Below are positions 3,697-35,219 of a stretch of 35,219 nt of DNA, one piece after another. Both the position numbers and the translations under genes were made by a program. Position 1 is the stretch's first letter. Every line of letters starts with the position of its first letter. The notes under the pieces are model-generated. The model saw only the letters and a list, made by a program, of their open reading frames with translations. It was not told the DNA's origin and did no database searches. This DNA is from a virus (taxonomy: Duplodnaviria > Caudoviricetes): positions 1 through 35,219 of IMG/VR virus record IMGVR_UViG_3300004241_000316. One strand, 5' to 3'.

Positions 3697-4446
3697 ATGA
3701 GCGATAAGTTAGAAGAATTAGCAGGCTTAGAGCATGAACAGTGGGCGTATTGGACAAAGTACATGTTAGATAATCTAACGCCTGAGAATGTAGATAGATG
3801 GGAAAGACAAATAGATACCCCATATAACGAGTTAAACGAAAAAGAAAAGGAATCTGACAGGAAGTGGGCAAGAAAGGCAATAGAAATACTAGGACGGGAA
3901 GTAAGGCAGGTGAAAGATATGAGCGACAATATAAAACAGGATACAGAAAACAGTATCTATATAGAAAATATAGACAAGAAATTAAAATATAATGGCAGTA
4001 TCACTGATAATAAAGCATATAAATTGTGTTTATTAGGTGCAACTGATAAGGAAATGGCTGAAATTATTGGAATTACTGAGTCAACTTTAAATGAGTGGAA
4101 GAAACAATATCCTAGTTTATCGGAGTCCATAAAAAGGGGCAAACGGGATGCAGATGCAGAGGTCGCAGAAAGCCTTTTTAAGAAAGCAACGGGCAAATGT
4201 ACTACCACAGAAGTAAAACGTGCTGTAGACGAAAATGGCAAGACTACAGAGAGCACTACAGTAAAAGAAAACATGCCTGATACATTAGCGGCTATGTACT
4301 GGCTTAACAACCGTAATCCTGACAGGTGGAAGCAGAAGCAGGAAATAGACCATAATGTTAGTGTAAAAACCCTCACGATATTACCTCCAGAGGAAGATGT
4401 TAAAGAGCTGCAAGAGGCAGAAGAACCGAAATTAATAGAAGAATAG
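3697..4446 (+). CDS. terS: Terminase small subunit (HTH) with in-frame N-terminal RyR-repeat-like domain; second start at 3919
   Basis: GATDKEMAEIIGITESTLNEWKKQYPSLSESIKRGK HTH and YWLNNRNPDRWK motifs are typical of phage TerS. The N-terminus has HEQW...TPYNELNEKEKESDR. Confidence 0.8.
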   Translation: MSDKLEELAGLEHEQWAYWTKYMLDNLTPENVDRWERQIDTPYNELNEKEKESDRKWARKAIEILGREVRQVKDMSDNIKQDTENSIYIENIDKKLKYNGSITDNKAYKLCLLGATDKEMAEIIGITESTLNEWKKQYPSLSESIKRGKRDADAEVAESLFKKATGKCTTTEVKRAVDENGKTTESTTVKENMPDTLAAMYWLNNRNPDRWKQKQEIDHNVSVKTLTILPPEEDVKELQEAEEPKLIEE

Positions 4447-8090: not shown

Positions 8091-8249
8091 TTGCAAAATA
8101 CGGAAGTAAAATGTAAAACTTGCGGCAGAACATTATTTTTCATAAGAAACGGTGTACTTGAAATAAAATGCAGGGATGGGACAATTAAAAGAATTTCATT
8201 ATTAGAGTTATCATCCCTTAGAAATGGGTTGACAGTTATTAAAATATAA
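8091..8249 (+). CDS. com: Com-family (phage Mu Com-like) zinc-finger RNA-binding protein, 52 aa
   Basis: AGGAGGT SD (8076-8082) and TTG start. EVKCKTCGRTLF...GVLEIKCRD matches the Com pattern IRCxxCxxLL...IEIxCxxC, except that the fourth Cys is absent. Confidence 0.75.
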   Translation: MQNTEVKCKTCGRTLFFIRNGVLEIKCRDGTIKRISLLELSSLRNGLTVIKI

Positions 8250-8283
8250 GAGTTCCAGGAACGCCTAGAGCGTCGAGAGAGCC
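8250..8283 (+). repeat. Four GA(G/A)NN(C/T)C heptads at 9-nt period (Com-type binding array)
   Basis: GAGTTCC 8250, GAACGCC 8259, GAGCGTC 8268, GAGAGCC 8277. Confidence 0.7.
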
Positions 8284-8321
8284 TATTCATTGCCTTAACG
8301 GGTAGTGAGTAGGCTTTTTTT
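8280..8321 (+). terminator. Intrinsic terminator upstream of terL
   Basis: 15-bp stem AGCCTATTCATTGCC/GGTAGTGAGTAGGCT with G-U pairs, then a T-run. Confidence 0.8.
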
Positions 8322-8348
8322 ATTTGTCTAAAAAGGGGGTGGTACAAG

Positions 8349-9817
8349 GTGTATAGAGTAGACTTAAAAGCACTACCGAAACTCACTAACGAAGTCTATT
8401 ATCCGCTATATAAGAATCAAAACAGATATTTGGTTTTATATGGCGGAGCCTGAATGTTGGCTCCGGTAAATCTGTATTTGCCGCACAAAAGACAATAAGA
8501 CGTATGTTAGAAGAACCAGGACATAAGATACTTGTTGTCAGAAAGGTTGCAAAAACACATAGACAAAGTACATTTGCTTTGCTGTGTCAAATAATATCAG
8601 ATTGGAACCTGGGAGAGATATTTGAGATAAATAAGACTGAAATGGAGATACGTTGTATAAACGGCAGTCAAGTAATACATGCCGGACTGGACGATGTAGA
8701 AAAAATCAAGTCGATCCAAGGGATAACCTCAATATGGATAGAGGAAGCCAGCGAGCTTGAAAAAGCAGATTTTATGCAGCTTGACCTTAGACTTAGGGGT
8801 AAGTTGAAGTATTACAAACAGATAATTCTTACCTTTAATCCTATTTCAGTTACACATTGGCTTAAAGCTGAGTTTTTCGATAATCCCAAGGAAGATGTCT
8901 TCACTCTAAAGACAACGTATAAAGATAACAAGTTTATAGATGATGAATACATCAAGGTACTTATGGCATTAAAGGATACCGATGAATACTATTTCATGGT
9001 TTACGTTTTGGGTAATTGGGGTGTACTTGGTAAGACGATATTCGACCCTATGAAGGTAAACAGTAGAATATCTGAGGTAGAGAATATAAAGGTTAAGAGA
9101 ATAGGTTATTTCCTCTATAAGTACGAGAACGAGAGAATAGTTGATGAATCTATCAAGTTTATTGATGATCCTAGCGGCTTTATTACAATCTATCAAGATG
9201 CTGAGTTCGGACACCCTTATGTAGTAGGCGGTGATACTGCCGGAGAGGGTTCAGACTACTTCGCCGGACAGGTTATTGATAACTCTGATGGTAAGCAAGT
9301 TGCAGTATTGCATAACAGATTCGACGAGGATTTATATACAAAACAGATGTATTGCCTGGGAAAATATTATAATAGTGCGCTGATAAGCATAGAAGCTAAT
9401 TTTAGCACTTATCCAGTATTAGAGTTGCAGAGGCTTGGATATAACAAGCAGTATAAACGGGAGATAATGGATACCTATACAAACAGATACCAAGAAAGAT
9501 TCGGATGGAGAACGGACAAGCTTACAAGACCAATTATGATTTCAAACCTTGTACAGATAGTCAGGGAGAAAACAGAGTGTTTTAACGATAAAGATACTTT
9601 GGATGAAATGCTTACATTCGTAAGGAATGAAAATGGCAGAGCAGAAGCGCAAACCGGAAAGCATGATGACCTTATTATGGCTCTTGCAATAGCATATCAG
9701 ACAAGAGACCAACAGGACTACAATGTGAAATTCCATAAAGAAGAAAAGACACTTATACAAAAAGACAAACAGAAGCGAGCAAGAAGATCATTATTCGGTG
9801 GTAGAAGACTTGCTTAG
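8349..9817 (+). CDS. terL: Terminase large subunit (PBSX-family), reading frame interrupted by an 8-nt insert at 8451-8458
   Basis: GTG 8349 gives MYRVDLKALPKLTNEVYYPLYKNQNRYLVLYGGA*. The frame of the 8504 ORF gives GSGKSVFAAQK from 8459. Walker B WIEEASE, coupling motif TFNP, and nuclease motifs GGDTA and HDDLIMA are present. Confidence 0.92.
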
Positions 9818-27900: not shown

Positions 27901-30900
27901 AAGGAACACCCTGGCGAATTATCCGAAAGTGCAGCTATGGCAGCAGTAGAACCACCCGAACCAACTTATTCACCAAAGTTACCTAAAGCAATTGTTGAAA
28001 AAGGGATATTGTCGCTTGCACAACTTGAGTCTGTAGTATACGCAGGGCAAGCACATTCGCAGATATCACCCGACGATACTAGAAGGGGTTTCTTCCTGGG
28101 TGACGGTACAGGTGTAGGAAAAGGCAGACAAATTTCAGGCATAATACTTGACAACATGGCACAAGGGCGCAAAAAGGCTGTATGGGTATCTAAAAATGAA
28201 AAACTATTCGATGATGCTAAAAGAGATTGGACATCATTAGGCGGTAAAGCCGATGATGTTTTTTATTTGGGCAAAACAAAGCTAGGTCAAAACATTGCTG
28301 CAAAGGAAGGAATATTATTTACTCCTTATGATACACTTGCTACTAATATGGAGGTAAGCGGTAGTGGAGAACTTACAACCAGAGGAAGCAAATCTTCCAG
28401 GTTAGATCAGATAGTTAACTGGTTGGGTAAAGACTTTGACGGAGTTTTAGTTTTTGATGAATCGCACATGATGGCAAACAGCATAACAACCAAAGGAAAG
28501 AGGGGAAATAAAAAGCCTTCTGCCAGGGGATTAGCAGGGGTAGAGCTTCAAAAGAGATTGCCAAAAGCAAGAGTTGTCTATGTATCTGCAACCGGAGCAA
28601 CAGAAGTTGCTAACCTTGCTTATGCGGATAGGTTGGGATTGTGGGGCAGAGGGACAGACTTTGCAAATAAGAATGACTTTATTAATAAGATATCCCAAGG
28701 TGGCCTTGCAGCTATGGAACTCATAGCGAGAGATATGAAAGCTATGGGGGTTTACCTTGCAAGGACATTGAGCTTCAAAGGCATTGAATATGAAACACTA
28801 GAACATAAATTAACCGATGAACAAGTTGAGATATACGATTCTATGGCAGAAGCATGGCAAATAGTGTTACAGAACATAGGTAAAGCATTACGGGCTACGG
28901 GTGCAGTTGATGAAGAAACAGGTAAGACACTAAATAGCAATGCTAAAAAGAATGCTATGGGCGCATTTTGGGGCGCACAGCAAAGATTCTTCAACCAGAT
29001 ACTTACCTCTATGCAAATGCCGTCAGCTATAGAAGCAATAAAGAAGGATTTAGCCGAAGGCAGGGCAGTAGTACTGCAACTAGTAAATACTAATGAAGCA
29101 ACACAAAATAGACAAATTGCAAGGCTCCAAGACGAAGAAGCTCCCCTAGAGGATTTAGATTTAACACCTAGAGATATTCTACTTCAATACCTTGAAAAGA
29201 GTTTTCCAACAGAGCAGTACGAAACATATGTTGATGAGAATGGCAATGAGAAATCAAGAATAGTTGTAGATTCAAAAGAGAACCCAGTTATAAACCAGGA
29301 AGCCTTAAAAATGAAACAAGAATTGCTGGAGAAAATAGGCTCATTAAAAGTACCTGAAGGTCCCTTAGAATACATCCTAAATACTTTTGGAGCAGATAAA
29401 GTTGCTGAGATAACGGGAAGAAGTCAGAGAATAGTAAATGTTAACGGCAAAGCACAGCTTGAAAAGAGAAGTGCAAGACATGTAGCTGCCGATGCAGATG
29501 CGTTCATGGATGATAAAAAGCAAATTCTTATATTCTCCGATGCTGGAGGCACGGGTAAGAGCTATCACGCAGATAAAACTAGAAAGAACCAACGAAGGAG
29601 AGTGCATTACTTAATTCAGGCAGGTTGGAGAGCTGATAATGCAGTCCAGGGCTTCGGCAGAACGCATAGAACTAATCAATCTTCTGCACCAATATACAGG
29701 CTTGTAACAACTAACCTCAAAGGGCAAAAGAGGTTTATTTCCTCCATCGCAAGGAGGTTAGACCAATTAGGAGCATTAACAAAGGGACAAAGGCAGACAG
29801 GAGGCCAAGGTTTATTTAAGGCTTCTGATAACCTAGAAGGGCCATTAGCCAGTGATGCATTGAGACTATTTTATAAAGACCTCGTTATGGACTGTGTTGA
29901 CAGGCTTGAAAAGAACAAAATCATTGATAAAATGGGTTTGCAATCTATGTTTGATGAATATGCCAAAATTAACGAGTCTAGCACAGACTTAAGAGATGTG
30001 CCTAAGTTCCTGAATAGAATACTATCTCTTGATACATCGACACAAAACTATGTATTTGATGCTTTTGTAGAACGACTTGAGGCACTAACCGAAGCTGCTA
30101 TTGAAAAAGGAATGTTAGATACAGGTCTGGAAAACTATAAGGCTGATAAGGTAATTGTACTTGATGAAAAAGTTGTGTTTGAGGATGAAAAATCAAAAGC
30201 GCAGACTAAATATTGTGAACTTGAAGCTTACCATAAAAATCATCCTGTACCTTTCAAAAAGTATAATAGGCCCGATAATGATTCATTCGTAGGATTTTAT
30301 AGAAATTCCAAGTCCGGAAACATAAGGGCAGTATACAAAGCTGGCAACATTACCACGGAATATGGTTCGGTGGATGAAGCATACAGGCTATACGGGCAAA
30401 TAAACGATAATAAGATGTCTGTTAAAGAGTTCAACGAGAGCAATTGGGAAAAAGTTGACACTGTCGAAGCAGAAGGTCTATGGGATGAAGCCGTAGCAAA
30501 AGTGCCTGAATACAAAACGGGAAAATTGTATATGATATCCGGAACTATACTTCCTATTTGGGGTAGACTACCACAGGAAAATGTAAAAGTAATAAGAACA
30601 GCAACAGACAAAGGGATTCTTCTAGGTAGATTAATCCATCCAAATCATATTGATGCTACTCTTAGAAATCTTAATACACAGAGACAAAAGGGTGAAATAA
30701 ATGTAGCTGAATTGGTGGAGCAGATTATAGAAGGTGGATTTAAAGCACGACTTGCAAACGGCTGGACAATAGAACGCCGCAAGGTATCGGGATATTGGAG
30801 ACTTGAATTAATTGGACGTGACTTATATGCCGCAAGAAATCAACTAAAAGAGGATGGAGTATATACAGAATATATTCAATACGATACTAGATACTTTATA

Positions 30901-33900
30901 CCTATAGGAGAAAAAGCAGTAGGAGTAATAAATAAGATAACTGAATACAGACCAGTAATTGATGTTATAGCTCCCGAAAATATGAAGGCAGGAGCTTCCG
31001 CAGTTCAATCTTTAACAGGAACAAGACCACAAATGCCACAAGGAAATAACACTGCGACCTTAAACAGCAAGGATGGCGCAAAAACAGTCGATGAAATAGT
31101 TGAAATAATAGAAAAAACAATAAGCGTTCCAATAAGGACAGGTAAGTTCAGACAAAAGGCACACGGTATTTTTAAAGAGCTGCCAGAAGTCATTCGCACA
31201 AAGGTTACAAATGACTTACCAACGATATGCCACGAAGTAGGGCATTACTTAGATAAGAAATTTGGACTAGACGATTTGCAATTCAAAGTTGAATTGATGG
31301 CATTGGGGAAACCTGCTTCTAGAAAATCATACACTAAAGCACAAGTAAGAGCAGAAGGCATTGCAGAATTTGTTAGGTTGTATTTAATAGATCCGATGCA
31401 AGCCAATATACAAGCTCCAAATTTCATGCAACATTTTGAATCTATAATTGACAGGGACACGCTTGTACTACTGAATAGCATAAGAATAGACATACTAAAG
31501 ATTGTCAATCTATCAGATGTTGATAAGGTTAAGAATGATATATCTGTAGGTGAAGCAAGAAAAGCTACAAAACAGAAAACGGGACTCAGGGGAACGATGC
31601 AAAAGTTATATGATGCTTGGATTGATGAATACGCTCCATTTGGTAGAGTTGCAAAGAGAGCTGAGAAGGTAGGCTATGACGGAGAAACTTTGAATACTGC
31701 CGTTAAAGATTATAGGGGTTTTGAAGGCAAGGTGCTAGGCAATATAAATATGGCACAGACCGACCTTAACAATAAGGTTATAGGGAAGTCTTTTAATGAG
31801 ATACTTAAACCTATCAACAAAAATGAGGTTAACGATTTCAGAGCTTACATGGTAGCACGAAGGGCAATAGACTATGATAACAGAAACATGGTTATGCCAC
31901 AAACGTATTCAACTTACTACAATACATTGATAGCTTTAGACAATAAATATCCCCATTTCCAGGATACATTTAACGAGCTTGGGGAGTGGGAAGACAACGA
32001 AATGCAACTTTTAGTAGATAGTGGAGTGTATAGCCAAGATGCGGTTGAAGAAATGAAGAAAAACAATCCTAACCATGTACCTCTTTATAGGATACAAGAG
32101 GCTGTGGAGGCGGTTTATGGTGGTAGTGGTTCAACCTTGGGGCAGTCTAAAAAGGTTGTTAAACAGGCTAAAGGTTCCGGCAAGACAATAATTGATCCTC
32201 TTGAAAGTATGATATTTAACGCCTTCTTAGTAAGGAGAGCTGCCGAAGCTAATCAGATACAAGGTATGCTTTACGATATGGCTAAAAACATTGAGGGTTT
32301 TGGCGATATTGTAGAAATTGTACCTTCTGGAGTAAAGGGCTTTTCATTCAATGTTGAAGAAATAGGAAAGACTCTACAAGGTATGCTACAGGACGATATA
32401 CAAAACGAAATTGATGATAGAAAAAGTAAAAATCCTAATGATCCACAAATTCCATATCTCGAAGCTAGAAAGCAACAAACAAATGTTAAAAATATGGACT
32501 TAGATAGAATGGTTACACTGTTCAGGGCAAACTACAGAGAACGGGACAACGAAACAACTTACTATAAAGATGGCAAACCAATATTAATGCAACTTGAAAC
32601 AGAACTTTATAAGGCGATAAAAGGACTCAACAGAGAAGCAAGCAGTTTCATAGTCAGAATATTGAACGTACCTAAAAAGGTACTCCAAGCCGGAGCAGTA
32701 ACAACAGTAAACTTTGTAATGAAGAATATGTCAAGAGATACTTCAACATCGTTAATCAATTCGGAGGCAGGAATAAACCCTATAGATATTATTAACGGGT
32801 ATGCTAGTGCATTTAAAAAAGATAAGTGGTTTAAACAATGGGTACTGTCCGGTGGTAGCACTGAATATCTCCAAATAAATGAGAGAACCCAGGTACAAGG
32901 CATACTTGATGATGCACTGGGGTATACCTTAATCGGCAAGCTCCAAGATGCAATTAAAAAACCGACAAAGGAGAACTTAACAAGGTTGCTGTTTACTCCA
33001 CTAAATAAAATAAGAAATGCGGTAGAGTGGTCTGAGGCAGGCCCAAGAGTAGCAGAATATAGAAAGGCAGTAGAAAAAGGTTACAGTAAGAGTGAAGCTA
33101 CTGCATTAAGTAGGGATTTATCTCAGGACTTTGCAAGACATGGTTACTATGGTAAAGAATACAATAAGATAACTGCTTTCTTCAATGGCAACGTACAAGG
33201 TATAGATAAACAAATAAGGATATTCAAAGAACACCCATACAGAACCTTGCTAAGAGGTATGTTGTATGTAACCTTGCCAACTATGATTCTATACTTCATC
33301 AATGACGATAATGACGAATACAAACGTATGGCAGCATGGAGAAAAGCATTGTTCTATAACATTCCATTAGGTAATAGAAAAACAGCACAACACTTTCTAT
33401 CCATACCGAAACCCTATGGGTGGGGTTTCTTCTTTGGAGCTTTGCCAGAGATAATATTAGACGGTATAAAAAATGATGATCCAAAGATGTGGAAAGACAT
33501 TAGAGATGGGTTTACAACTAACTTTGATGTGCCGCTTGTCCCTTCTGCTGCATCTCCGACATTTGAGGTTATGAGAAATAAGAGTTGGAACAAGACGCCT
33601 ATAGAAAGTTACGGAGACAGCTTCAAATTTCCGTATCTAAGAAAAAACGAGAATAGCAGTATGGCTGCGGTTGGAATTGCCGACGTGTTGAAGGATGTAC
33701 CTGGAGTTAATAAACTATCCCCTAAGCAGCTCGACTATCTTGTGAAGGGTTATGGCGGCTCAGTAGGAGATTTCTTCTGGCGATTGCCGGATACAATTAA
33801 AAAAGGTATGGAATTGCCAACGGATTATACAAACTATCCGGTTGTAAAAGCTTTTATCACGGACACAGCATATTCCAACAGGTCAATAGATGATTTATAC

Positions 33901-34215
33901 ACCTATGGGAAAGAACTAAATGACAGATTGAGTGAAGCCCAAGAAACAGGAAAGTACAGAGCAATATCTCACTTGTCAGAGAATGAACAAAAGGCCTTAC
34001 AGTCGGCTATCAAGTATGCAATCAAAGAATACAACTCATTGGCCAATGATTTTTCAGATGCAAAGAGTAAGATCAAGGGGATAAGGGCAAACGACAAATA
34101 CAGCCCAGCAGAAAAGAAACTCAGAGAAAGAGAAGTACAGTTGCAAATGGTTAAAAAAGCAGAGTATTTCGTCAAAAAATACGAAGTGTTTAAGAAAAAT
34201 AACAAAATAAAGTAA
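21934..34215 (+). CDS. Giant polyvalent virion protein (DarB-like): PG-binding domain, N6-adenine MTase, strawberry-notch SF2 helicase, HExxH metallopeptidase, LPD38-like C-terminus
   Basis: 4093 aa. PG-binding VDGIYGPET..VDGIAGKQT (~22250-22400); MTase QQFSTP, LEPSAG (26791) and MNPPF (26983); GDGTGVGKG (28099), DESH (28456), QGFGRTHR (29647); HEVGH (31231). True start may be TTG 21943. Confidence 0.9.
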   Translation: MNQLGNDTKKYTIGRGNDLELFKKKFSGGTVKAEIETEKDIKGNEADNMLYTKNEPTSNNSAVGSAYAARAIMGMIRTQAQEGKPQSPTGTFKRYTENMAAGRDNSPEQVKKIQRALGITVDGIYGPETRKAVIRFQRDNGLLVDGIAGKQTLGKLFRYTNGTGMEDKYSAYAGTSIAKRDLYSSAVIPSTGMESKQSTYDTEQMLKPFSTISKPSEYGTLPKTDIIKSALEQKKTEENNQPSWGKTVSSSLLGNVAQTQTGMFNIPKKVIEGVSLGLDKILPDSIYNKEMQNNDPIMKALDNAVKSNESRAIAYQKDLEGVKGLKKFVSLGIGSLPQIVMAGVGGAAMTGMGGATLGSSSALSKLPTAAKQLIPFGTLAGSGYAREAENEGATYGQQMAYGLLGGTAEAATEVLPLENGLNLLKKFGAGDIAEEGAKTLIGKYGKTALSVLKELVFEGFQEGAMSPLGRGAQKMTYKPDMAMSGEGGVIDLKSMGEDAYSGVAMAVILGALGLPSAYASHKLVSQKIENGEPITPDFIKNEAMPAMQNDINSIDSSSGNDSNVGNGVVQPTQPFMPGINNKKSVSEIINGNPVSSVNFEDLEGTGMSKELVYALRQIKLGTPVPNDIVAKYPELQRIINGEISIDDFVNALDGGQLITPNVASPELQEGQLNNGIVQTINNNLIPQNNYKPEDLGQAEVKNNLINGIKADINLTPSQYRDSWNEMSISVYEEISKLKEEMKKADGKEKAALKARINDLDVGVNSKFENEYLTPLQNEIRKYLREIYGLDEGKIEQVVSDILENFTEEYMDKEHFDMPLKQWVDEYIEQEQQEPIDYIPNNAQAAILEEKETIDNGNIVPPSSSEQAAAENKPFADINNNEEGTATKGEAEEKPQNEKKEPTHKIKYGRDGKAAYEKWGNNEYVNADLNKPDDEYTQAFTKFFEFYYNKGLNGEKFPMFNEKFPVGKYNFPPFLEDAFYKAGVQDLEARNKRESKKKESEEKPTVSPKVLSDYGIEVRKTKTNRGNDVWHVPTNDKTKQYVDIFHKLKAIWYKPHPKAKAVWSFNYDPTEVLLKELTGKEVKATEVNTERESYPDSIDNDIKKLFYDNMGKNEEKALRAYNDFMKSYPDNWQNNLIKGRVVKGILAKYINDMEVLEDVFNKLKEMDESNNANRYGSDNYLELLNMVRTRVLTDEFLNKVAANQDNDEQNMLIAVEDKIKGYVAEVFLENIDKSSGNSINQMQEYFKDTAEIAKRYLKILKENIVNNQKTEHNEGEKKGADTKPNDNTVNPIKKTLPEGPVKNNLAWLDAQAELARQRLKDRHKNVRLNAGLPMDDLVDYSIIGADKLANGVVDFAEWSKEMLEEFGDNLRLFLRAIYGQSEAMLEMSPEDIQEMFELANKEDNNTPKEDTHKRTVSKDGRLKVGDIVRWEKNQSMYDVRRYYDKDFEIISFSDDFQLNDVASLRDLQTGEYLHRMIVRFLQKQQGNKKQTNNPSQKIADEVKESLGKNETIKINELIGWAEEAYGSKLSEGKYDRKQVHDAMELGVNQYLLENSKVLNTNNKDINAVLSNIDILKSLVELLPTQTNQTQEMKDFQQFSTPPHIAYVAAFAANIDKNDIALEPSAGIGGIATFAKINGAKVVVNELSQKRLEILKNMDFDEVYNENAEHINSILHDKVKPTVVVMNPPFSATAGRMGDKNSTKNAKAHIEQALDILQNGGRLVAIVGQGMTDNSKTFADWWEKIKAKYNVRANIPLYNADQTSNIKHTDEYKKYGTTFGTQLIVIDKTGSTENTLVANEPDLKKVVKLLVKEGIYDDRQRNIAGDQKSEPASDQYDSNAKPEKTGASNRGQSTTHGATNELGDRQSESGASRDNGSNQTRNEGNVGRDNSKSQPEPKNSNEVPSVGRKPSDTNIGFEGQKDSEGSNRVSPGEGNKQTDRKGDNIQQSGGNEIRELEVKVSGNKSNETVEKELDDSIYDTYTPSKLEIKGAKEHPGELSESAAMAAVEPPEPTYSPKLPKAIVEKGILSLAQLESVVYAGQAHSQISPDDTRRGFFLGDGTGVGKGRQISGIILDNMAQGRKKAVWVSKNEKLFDDAKRDWTSLGGKADDVFYLGKTKLGQNIAAKEGILFTPYDTLATNMEVSGSGELTTRGSKSSRLDQIVNWLGKDFDGVLVFDESHMMANSITTKGKRGNKKPSARGLAGVELQKRLPKARVVYVSATGATEVANLAYADRLGLWGRGTDFANKNDFINKISQGGLAAMELIARDMKAMGVYLARTLSFKGIEYETLEHKLTDEQVEIYDSMAEAWQIVLQNIGKALRATGAVDEETGKTLNSNAKKNAMGAFWGAQQRFFNQILTSMQMPSAIEAIKKDLAEGRAVVLQLVNTNEATQNRQIARLQDEEAPLEDLDLTPRDILLQYLEKSFPTEQYETYVDENGNEKSRIVVDSKENPVINQEALKMKQELLEKIGSLKVPEGPLEYILNTFGADKVAEITGRSQRIVNVNGKAQLEKRSARHVAADADAFMDDKKQILIFSDAGGTGKSYHADKTRKNQRRRVHYLIQAGWRADNAVQGFGRTHRTNQSSAPIYRLVTTNLKGQKRFISSIARRLDQLGALTKGQRQTGGQGLFKASDNLEGPLASDALRLFYKDLVMDCVDRLEKNKIIDKMGLQSMFDEYAKINESSTDLRDVPKFLNRILSLDTSTQNYVFDAFVERLEALTEAAIEKGMLDTGLENYKADKVIVLDEKVVFEDEKSKAQTKYCELEAYHKNHPVPFKKYNRPDNDSFVGFYRNSKSGNIRAVYKAGNITTEYGSVDEAYRLYGQINDNKMSVKEFNESNWEKVDTVEAEGLWDEAVAKVPEYKTGKLYMISGTILPIWGRLPQENVKVIRTATDKGILLGRLIHPNHIDATLRNLNTQRQKGEINVAELVEQIIEGGFKARLANGWTIERRKVSGYWRLELIGRDLYAARNQLKEDGVYTEYIQYDTRYFIPIGEKAVGVINKITEYRPVIDVIAPENMKAGASAVQSLTGTRPQMPQGNNTATLNSKDGAKTVDEIVEIIEKTISVPIRTGKFRQKAHGIFKELPEVIRTKVTNDLPTICHEVGHYLDKKFGLDDLQFKVELMALGKPASRKSYTKAQVRAEGIAEFVRLYLIDPMQANIQAPNFMQHFESIIDRDTLVLLNSIRIDILKIVNLSDVDKVKNDISVGEARKATKQKTGLRGTMQKLYDAWIDEYAPFGRVAKRAEKVGYDGETLNTAVKDYRGFEGKVLGNINMAQTDLNNKVIGKSFNEILKPINKNEVNDFRAYMVARRAIDYDNRNMVMPQTYSTYYNTLIALDNKYPHFQDTFNELGEWEDNEMQLLVDSGVYSQDAVEEMKKNNPNHVPLYRIQEAVEAVYGGSGSTLGQSKKVVKQAKGSGKTIIDPLESMIFNAFLVRRAAEANQIQGMLYDMAKNIEGFGDIVEIVPSGVKGFSFNVEEIGKTLQGMLQDDIQNEIDDRKSKNPNDPQIPYLEARKQQTNVKNMDLDRMVTLFRANYRERDNETTYYKDGKPILMQLETELYKAIKGLNREASSFIVRILNVPKKVLQAGAVTTVNFVMKNMSRDTSTSLINSEAGINPIDIINGYASAFKKDKWFKQWVLSGGSTEYLQINERTQVQGILDDALGYTLIGKLQDAIKKPTKENLTRLLFTPLNKIRNAVEWSEAGPRVAEYRKAVEKGYSKSEATALSRDLSQDFARHGYYGKEYNKITAFFNGNVQGIDKQIRIFKEHPYRTLLRGMLYVTLPTMILYFINDDNDEYKRMAAWRKALFYNIPLGNRKTAQHFLSIPKPYGWGFFFGALPEIILDGIKNDDPKMWKDIRDGFTTNFDVPLVPSAASPTFEVMRNKSWNKTPIESYGDSFKFPYLRKNENSSMAAVGIADVLKDVPGVNKLSPKQLDYLVKGYGGSVGDFFWRLPDTIKKGMELPTDYTNYPVVKAFITDTAYSNRSIDDLYTYGKELNDRLSEAQETGKYRAISHLSENEQKALQSAIKYAIKEYNSLANDFSDAKSKIKGIRANDKYSPAEKKLREREVQLQMVKKAEYFVKKYEVFKKNNKIK
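27377..27796 (+). CDS. Nested +1-frame gene (139 aa) inside the giant ORF
   Basis: Perfect AAGGAGG SD at 27361-27367, ATG 9 nt later, protein-like composition. The host frame here is a low-complexity polar linker. Confidence 0.65.
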   Translation: MIGKETLQEIRKANLHPINMIAMQNLRKLEQVIEDNQLHMAQLMSWGIDNPKVELPEIMGVTKPEMKEMLEGIIASLNQNPKTAMKYLVLEENPVIQISDLKDKKTAKEATEYLLEKVTSKLIEKGIIFNNPEEMRYEN

Positions 34216-34270: not shown

Positions 34271-34302
34271 ATATAAAATTGACGAAAGTGAGGCGGTTGG
34301 CT

Positions 34303-34598
34303 ATGACAGAAATGGAGTTATGCGCTGAAAGGCACGAAAGGATTAAAGAACTTTAGACTTGCACAACGACAGGTTAAATGCTCACAGTACTAAACTTGAT
34401 GTGCTGGAAAAGAACTATGCAGGTTCAGCTAAAGACATTGGATACTTAAAAGAGACAATTACCGAACTCAAAAAAAGCATAGACAAACTCATAGAGGCAT
34501 TAGATCGTTTGAAGATTAGACCACTTGAAAAGTATGAACAAATAGCAATGTGTGTTATTACATTCATTATCGCTTATGTTCTAGGGAAGGTATTGTAA
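34303..34598 (+). pseudogene. XhlA/hemolysin-like lysis accessory protein, frameshifted near 34350
   Basis: GAGG SD and ATG 34303 give MTEMELCAERHERIKE, then L and TAG. The -1 frame continues TLDLHNDRLNAHS as a coiled coil with a C-terminal TM helix. Confidence 0.65.
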
Positions 34599-34797: not shown

Positions 34798-35219
34798 ATG
34801 AAAGGTATAGATTTTACAAACCCATTAACTGTAGCTAAAGCAAAGGAACTTAAAGCTAACGGATATGACTTTGTATGTCGATACCTTGTTCCGGAGGGAT
34901 ACAGGACTAAGCGCATCACAAAAGCCGAAGCAGAAGCAACTACGGCAGGAATGATGCATTTGGCAATGAAGGTTTTTGGAATGTTGAAATAGAGAAAGCA
35001 GAGAAAATTACAATAACTAAGATACTTAAAAAAGGCACGGAGGGTGAAGAAGTTAAGACATTACAAACAATGCTTAATAAACATGGATACAAACTTATAG
35101 AGGATGGAGATTTTGGAGCAATTACCCAGGCAGCCGTTAAAGACTATCAGAGGTCAAATGAATTAGTTGCCGATGGAGTTGTTGGGGCTAAAACTTGGGC
35201 TAAACTTTATGGGGAGTAG
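34798..35219 (+). pseudogene. Endolysin (DUF1906-type glycoside hydrolase plus PG-binding domain) with internal deletion and frameshift
   Basis: The N-terminus MKGID...GYDFVCRYL...ITKAEAEA is DUF1906-like. From about 34950 the -1 frame reads NDAFGNEGFW...LKKGTEGEEVKTLQ...DGDFGAITQAAVKDYQ...DGVVGAKTWAKL* ending at 35219. Confidence 0.8.

Follow-up and report, generated by a model that had tools for sequence, protein, structure and literature searches.

The gene for the large terminase subunit (terL) of a temperate phage is interrupted within the codons of its ATP-binding loop by 8 bases that begin with a stop codon. This insert is a real stop-led gap, and 23 lineages, this phage included, carry such a gap at the same codon of the Walker A motif, in 17 distinct forms of 2, 5, 6, 7 or 8 nt. 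Because the inserts recur at one spot and the codons flanking them match, ribosomes likely hop over the stop. We infer from nucleotide sequences that the insert is quite probably crossed by a short translational bypass (stop-hop). Natural bypassing is known from very few systems, namely gene 60 of T4-like phages, Magnusiomyces mitochondria and, as candidates, the terL genes of Streptomyces phages. In the terL inserts, nature offers 17 versions of a very small signal, which lies in an essential gene and has covariation built in, so that the rules of re-pairing in the P-site (length of the gap, tolerance of mismatches, context of the stop and spacing from a Shine-Dalgarno (SD) motif) can be tested directly.

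The interrupted terminase gene

The DNA analysed comprises positions 1 to 35,219 of IMG/VR record IMGVR_UViG_3300004241_000316 (hereafter the window). The codons TAT (8439-8441), GGC, GGA and GCC (8448-8450) precede the insert, and GGC TCC GGT AAA TCT follows from 8459; the insert itself, TGAATGTT, occupies 8451-8458 between GCC and this GGC. The two parts joined (34 and 452 codons) give a TerL of 486 aa. The initial annotation of this DNA had described the 8-nt insert, its UGA, the 486-aa join, a GGAG motif and a GUU landing triplet, and all of these lie in the sequence where it had placed them. The features of the region are as follows.

3697..4446, plus strand: terminase small subunit gene (terS), PHROG 309, E 8e-41; 3.9 kb upstream of terL and uncoupled from it
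8275..8320, plus strand: terminator-like hairpin just before terL, with a 20-pair stem and a T run; common to the uninterrupted relative
8330..8343, plus strand: very strong Shine-Dalgarno site of terL, duplex of -18.0 kcal/mol with an assumed anti-SD motif
8337..8458, plus strand: diverged patch (ribosome-binding site, 34 codons and insert); the alignment with runs X3 and X4 breaks from 8336 to 8458
8349..8453, plus strand: terL part 1, 34 codons from a GTG start, ending in YGGA and then UGA; 91% identical to the residues of locus L002
8403..8446, plus strand: long 5' mRNA hairpin, predicted, ending just before the take-off codon; specific to the window lineage
8444..8465, plus strand: perfect 7-bp stem around the insert (8444-8450 with 8459-8465), from sequence and folds; specific to the window lineage
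8448..8450, plus strand: likely take-off codon GCC (Ala); GCC and GCG are commoner in carriers of an insert
8451..8458, plus strand: 8-nt coding gap, with the UGA stop at 8451-8453 and the likely landing triplet GUU at 8456-8458
8459..9817, plus strand: terL part 2, 452 codons from GSGKS

The frame of part 2 matches the Pfam family Terminase_3 (PF04466, E 2e-50) from profile position 12, and it has no in-frame ATG, GTG or TTG ahead of the Walker A lysine. The nearest uninterrupted relative, L002 (95% amino acid identity), reads YGGAGSGKS with the codons GGT GGT GCT GGC, and the sister protein aligns with PDB 4IDH at the GGxGSGKS P-loop. A Terminase_3 ATPase domain with this P-loop is present, i.e. 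the gene encodes a PBSX-type large terminase. The GUU of the window differs from the take-off codon GCC at the second position and is near-cognate only. Judged from L002, it is probably the resident alanine codon GCT after one transition. GGAG at 8445-8448 stands 7 nt ahead of GTT (8456-8458). A cognate GCU is found at 8460, 4 nt past GUU, from which translation would reach a stop after 11 codons.

An assembly error, left as a caveat by the initial annotation, is ruled out as the source of the insert. Contig L001, possibly from the same sample, is identical to the window, and run X1, possibly the source of the window, yields one identical contig without gaps (depth 11.8). In run X2, which belongs to a different study, a contig of 204 nt (depth 2.5) covers 8310-8513 with eight substitutions and no gap; four of its five listed changed codons, read by hand, are synonymous. 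Both runs were compared as contigs. It is this divergent strain from a second study, together with the inserts of 22 other lineages, that excludes the artefact.

Recurrence of the insert and matching of the flanking codons

A first search for homologues gave 15 loci, among them L005 (50% identity), whose stop-led insert at this codon is a different one, of 6 nt. Pattern scans gave 32, 48, 10 and 40 loci in viral sequences, 29 in metagenomes and at least 120 in genomes. These loci were filtered by HMM and near-copies (L029, L034 and L037) were removed, leaving 23 lineages, which are not phylogenetically independent. Also excluded were L016, L021 and L030, which have an uninterrupted MGGAGS in a shifted register, L053, with an in-frame sense codon, and L179, an ABC-type ATPase. 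Every insert falls after the fourth residue of YGGx. A stop codon opens the gap in 23/23 lineages, five of the six insert scans having demanded T and a purine at the gap start; in the scan without a stop requirement, 17 of 18 TerL loci, from six lineages, are stop-led, the lone exception, a distant TerL, having a sense codon in frame. Recurrence of differing short stop-led inserts at this codon, as the initial annotation had envisaged, is therefore found in 23 lineages. All five inserts of 7-8 nt (L001/window, L023, L267, L270 and L272) open with TGAA despite belonging to three separate TerL clades, which may reflect either a shared origin or a preferred stop context. L360 has no insert and has an in-frame TAG about four codons before YGGA, where its relatives have Glu (RY*VYYGGA); this could be a null allele, a recoded stop or another throttle.

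Uninterrupted terL genes with the same motif are found in about 480 stretches of IMG/VR, while carriers in the pattern class that corresponds to them number 20 (about 4%). In GTDB genomes (40 of 64 parts, at least 120 loci), L112 is the one TerL carrier among the matches listed, the others being chance matches. Searches of INPHARED (tblastn and three blastn searches) gave no cultured carrier among the three nearest records inspected, each of which has one continuous annotated terL. In a quick tree of 98 ATPase domains, carriers are scattered among uninterrupted genes, and the insert label switches 14 times, at least eight of these switches being forced by strong branches.

The landing triplet, taken as the last three bases of the gap, is unconstrained by any scan pattern. 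Among 20 gaps of at least 5 nt (a set without L280 and the two 2-nt gaps), 15 have a landing triplet whose first two bases repeat those of the take-off codon, against a permutation mean of 7.2 matches, and none of 100,000 shuffles reaches 15. Take-off codons other than those of alanine match in 6/6 cases (Gly with GGN four times, CGA with CGU and AGA with AGC). The five unmatched landing triplets comprise two of GUU (the window and L044), two of GUA and one of ACU; GUA is also the end of both 2-nt gaps. Since GUU and GUA landings recur after alanine, the GUU of the window belongs to a recurring near-cognate class; the earlier proposal that tRNA-Ala lands on GUU is borne out to the extent that GUU or GUA closes 4/20 gaps of at least 5 nt and both 2-nt gaps. 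When the take-off codon is that of alanine, it is GCC or GCG in 14/17 carriers and in 20/87 uninterrupted genes with alanine at this position (p=6e-6). Such matching is what re-pairing of peptidyl-tRNA would predict; frameshifting, readthrough and splicing would need none. As to gap length, 15/23 gaps are 2 modulo 3, seven are in frame and only one is 1 modulo 3. Much of this bias would be accounted for by the fact that a 4-nt gap is too short for a stop plus a GCN or GGN triplet.

Probable stop-hopping and competing explanations

Ribosomal bypass, suggested by the initial annotation, is the best reading of these data, backed by stop-led inserts at one codon in 23 lineages. In the window, ribosomes loaded at the very strong SD site would read 34 codons and then pause once UGA occupies the A-site. 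The majority would release a 34-aa peptide. In a minority, peptidyl-tRNA-Ala would leave GCC, slide 8 nt and re-pair with GUU through one Watson–Crick and two G-U pairs, 7 nt after GGAG, and decoding would restart at GGC to produce the 486-aa TerL with its P-loop intact. The upstream hairpin and the stem of the window may compensate for the poor fit of the landing codon and steer the tRNA away from the cognate GCU at 8460, which is a dead end.

Dedicated RNA structure appears to be confined to the window lineage. The perfect 7-bp stem with the insert as its loop, described previously, is present in the sequence, but in folds that include the upstream DNA only the inner four pairs are stable (pair probability 0.91-0.99 for the three inner stem pairs measured and 0.02 for the outer pair 8444-8465), because the hairpin at 8403-8446 draws on the same 5' arm. 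Over the last 60 nt ahead of the stop, the window has a folding z of -4.4, the strongest of the 23 carriers. Across the family, arm pairing is no stronger in carriers than in uninterrupted genes (p=0.77), contrary to the earlier expectation of a conserved stem, and upstream folding is the same in carriers and controls (p=0.45), with z below -2 in 3/23 and 9/111, respectively. Carriers do have a lower local folding energy (p=0.001), but their segments contain the insert and are longer by its length. A conserved hairpin as a family signal is rejected on the arm-pairing and upstream-fold comparisons, which leaves the perfect hairpin as peculiar to the window lineage. GGA-GC occurs in four of the five gaps of 7-8 nt, although Gly codons give such mini-SD motifs anyway; the second Gly is GGA in 9/23 carriers as compared with 28/110 controls. 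As regards a possible nascent-peptide stimulator, the peptide translated before the stop is under constraint from its role in TerL.

Judged by their substitutions, the carriers are evolving under purifying selection. The pair L017/L029 has 24 synonymous and four non-synonymous differences. L270 and L267, whose 8- and 7-nt inserts are one base apart, differ with dN 0.017 and dS 0.79, and L280 and L112, a pair that has recombined, with dN 0.016 and dS 0.53. Translation initiation also sets the carriers apart. With starts chosen by SD strength using the assumed anti-SD motif, and among lineages that are not independent, the SD energy is -12.7 or stronger in 21/21 scorable carriers (the 23 minus L270 and L272, which lack upstream DNA; median -16.3), whereas the 113 uninterrupted genes have a median of -6.4 and 16 of them reach -12.5 or stronger. 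Sister comparisons give the same contrast. Coupling to an upstream ORF is found in only 5/21 carriers versus 77/113 uninterrupted genes. So strong a signal for ribosome loading, on an mRNA with a stop at codon 35, is understandable if part of the ribosomes get past that stop.

Low terminase output would then be the product of strong initiation and an inefficient hop, in place of coupling to terS, and a stop-hop suggests how phages could hold down the amount of an enzyme that cuts DNA. The best-placed start is other than ATG in 11/16 strong-SD uninterrupted genes (CTG in L002) and in 4/21 carriers (p=0.006); weak start codons suggest an alternative way of holding terminase low. Several uninterrupted terL genes with a strong SD (L002, L339, L346, L355 and L408) seem to start with CTG, ATA or ATT. 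In the window, terL may also be limited at transcription by the terminator-like hairpin at 8275-8320. This hairpin is preceded by a Cys-rich ORF of 52 aa (8091-8249), which has no convincing match in Pfam or PHROG and which we take, by eye, to resemble a Com-type zinc ribbon. Annotation pipelines will call terminase genes that work in this way pseudogenes or truncate them.

Recoding of another kind is an unlikely alternative to the stop-hop. A -1 slip at gaps of 2, 5 and 8 nt, or readthrough at gaps of 6 nt, would leave one to three extra residues in the P-loop, three of them in the window. The distribution of gap lengths modulo 3 fits these events, the downstream frame of the window has no stop in the 15 codons ahead of the resume codon, and for both 2-nt gaps a -1 slip and a +2 hop are equally fitting. 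However, neither slip nor readthrough requires the landing triplet to match the take-off codon, as it does in 15/20 gaps, and the 7-nt gap of L267 stands beside the 8-nt gap of L270 with both genes under purifying selection. Spacing within the P-loop is fixed, which argues against extra residues. Readthrough by a nearby suppressor tRNA is rejected, no tRNA gene being present in the window or in 14/14 loci scanned (pieces of 2.5-20 kb).

It is somewhat more doubtful still that the inserts are inactivating scars of mobile elements, in prophages that die or borrow the terminase of a helper. The window does sit in an integrated temperate phage with a P22-type portal, whose integrase, repressor and a host-type LysR gene are found on the longer contig G001. 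Its lysis genes, noted as damaged in the initial annotation, indeed have two lesions (within 34301-34595 and 34798-35219) as compared with provirus G002: a frameshift divides the gene ahead of the holin, which corresponds to a 118-aa ORF of G002, and the truncated endolysin keeps only 64 codons of a glycoside-hydrolase-like start and a separate peptidoglycan-binding end, G002 having a gene for an M15 peptidase at this place. In view of this damage the prophage copy in the window may be defective, for reasons that may be unrelated to the insert. The low share of carriers among pattern matches and the lack of a cultured carrier among the three nearest INPHARED records inspected would also suit decay. 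On the other hand, decay predicts neither the rule that a stop comes first nor codon matching, and it is at odds with the purifying selection between carriers, their intact downstream ORFs and the unusually strong ribosome-binding site kept in 21/21. In the window itself, the ORFs of the portal, the capsid and the adaptor region each align in one frame with G002.

Removal of the insert before translation, either from the mRNA as a micro-intron or from a share of the DNA, is very improbable. Micro-excision had been raised in the initial annotation, and the insert of the window is exactly the loop of a hairpin. Structure, ends and length are, however, unconserved over the 17 inserts, some of which have only 2 nt, and the covariation tracks codon identity, which is a property of translation. 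The X1 and X2 contigs show no joint or deletion at the insert and so lend micro-excision no support, although contigs drop rare variants. The sole RNA-labelled run (X3, a small share) contains only the uninterrupted relative. A two-piece gene, encoding the 34-aa peptide and a restarted downstream protein, is hardly credible and is rejected: the start codon at 8504, which would give 437 aa, lies past the Walker A lysine, and 21/23 carriers have no ATG, GTG or TTG in the downstream frame from the last upstream stop to the resume codon.

Proposed origin of the insert and relation to known bypass systems

The inserts are associated with homing endonucleases. A NUMOD4-HNH, I-HmuI-like or GIY-YIG gene lies directly upstream of terL in 10/21 carriers versus 1/72 controls (p=4e-7). 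In the other 11 carriers no endonuclease gene adjoins terL; they include the window, where the two ORFs upstream of terL have no Pfam hit. Compared with the uninterrupted sister, the patch at 8337-8458 has diverged far more than the DNA on both flanks. Synonymous differences from the sister are found in 15/24 codons upstream versus about 112/452 downstream of the insert (p=2e-4), and the region 8200-8336 has only seven differences in runs X3 and X4. L280 and L112 have the endonuclease, the 5' codons and the insert in common, whereas their downstream backbones differ, the downstream gene of L280 being nearer to that of the uninterrupted L289 (pS 0.13 versus 0.38). The discordance among L280, L112 and L289 and the diverged patch of the window point to lateral transfer of the insert together with its flank.

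The insert would accordingly be read as the 3' edge of a mobile patch consisting of the endonuclease gene, a new ribosome-binding site, replacement 5' codons, the take-off codon and the stop. Such a patch would take the recipient's own alanine codon as landing site and would shield the allele from cutting by the endonuclease, as in T4 mobA/gene 60. The link to homing endonucleases suggests a second case of an endonuclease-driven origin of recoding. The interval from terS to terL contains serine resolvase genes at several loci, carriers as well as controls (L097, L243, L245, L346 and L352), and a tyrosine recombinase is present in L256; by this gene content, the terS–terL junction is a hotspot of insertion.

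The bypass of T4-like gene 60 is associated with matched codons, a stop and mobA, and the endonuclease of the MobA element is sometimes lost while the bypass stays (bioRxiv 10.1101/2022.08.31.505936). The terL inserts resemble it in their position at an invariant codon, in the stop right after the take-off codon and in matched take-off and landing codons that covary, and also in an upstream HNH endonuclease that is sometimes lost, in repeated insertion at one site and in a replaced 5' segment. Unlike the 50-nt gap of gene 60, the gaps in terL are of 2-8 nt, and the target is the Walker A motif of terL instead of a topoisomerase. Two endonuclease families, of putative activity, take part here, about one-fourth of the gaps have a mismatched landing triplet (GUN or ACU), and the bypass is deduced from sequence. 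A take-off stem-loop and a 5' stem-loop, both predicted in the window, are not conserved in the 23 carriers; the stop directly 3' of the take-off codon is found and the codons match at the level of the family. A free-standing endonuclease gene by the gap, as in the MobA type, is absent from the window and present in the ten carriers mentioned above.

In Streptomyces phage Hau3 and in the prophages StrepC.1 and S. catenulae, terL has gaps of 7-10 nt led by UUA; with UAA substituted for UUA, the bypass at KGWG of Hau3 terL was proven in E. coli by mass spectrometry (PMC10732093). KGWG, which the first Streptomyces gap follows, may be read as a Walker A loop. A short gap in a large terminase gene is common to both groups. 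Here the codon in the A-site is one of the true stops (UAA, UAG or UGA), in contrast to the developmentally gated UUA of Hau3. The genes described here belong to the PBSX/Terminase_3 family and to another host group, and they form 23 lineages with codon covariation and a link to endonucleases, as compared with three genes in the Hau3 group. TTA opens 0/23 gaps; only the scan free of a stop requirement (18 TerL loci) could show such a gap, and none was there. With neither conserved stem-loops nor UUA, the terL gaps described here belong to neither the T4 gene 60 type nor the Hau3 type, though they would work alike.

Synthetic stop-hops in E. coli reporters reportedly go back to the work of Weiss in 1987. 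Such hops have been described (PMC5009743; bioRxiv 2024.12.09.627546), and the terL cases differ from them in being natural, selected and located in an essential gene. A 2016 review states that no natural in-frame stop hopping was known (PMC5009743), and one passage of a 2024 preprint gives bypass in T4, phage terminase candidates and Magnusiomyces only (bioRxiv 2024.12.09.627546). Similarly to the byps of Magnusiomyces mitochondria, the terL inserts are many and short, with relaxed codon matching and little context dependence (PMC5009743); unlike byps, they concern bacterial ribosomes, real stops in place of an unused codon and one fixed site in one gene. Among literature records represented mostly by titles and the openings of abstracts, no report of stop-led gaps in PBSX-type terL was found.

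A broader proposal, put forward tentatively and with a little less than even confidence, is that these inserts represent a widespread natural class of minimal stop-hops of 2-8 nt, with no RNA structure devoted to them, that several families of homing endonuclease have carried into the P-loop of terL. Together with a maximal ribosome-binding site, the hop would form a rheostat that replaces coupling to terS, and packaging would depend on the pace of termination in the host, i.e. on the supply of release factor. The class would include in-frame stop-hops and routine landing of tRNA-Ala with a G-U pair at mid-codon.

As to the host of the phage in the window, its relatives point to Bacillota; a search for the LysR gene in five genomes gave best-scoring matches of only 27-29% identity. 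Downstream of terL, an ORF of 4093 aa (21934-34215), with an endolysin-like N-terminus and a methyltransferase-like stretch, is mosaic relative to its counterpart in G002, and likely encodes a giant virion protein that is ejected. Genes of the tail region (at 19974-21899 and 17831-18103) have internal repeats whose copy numbers differ from those in G002.
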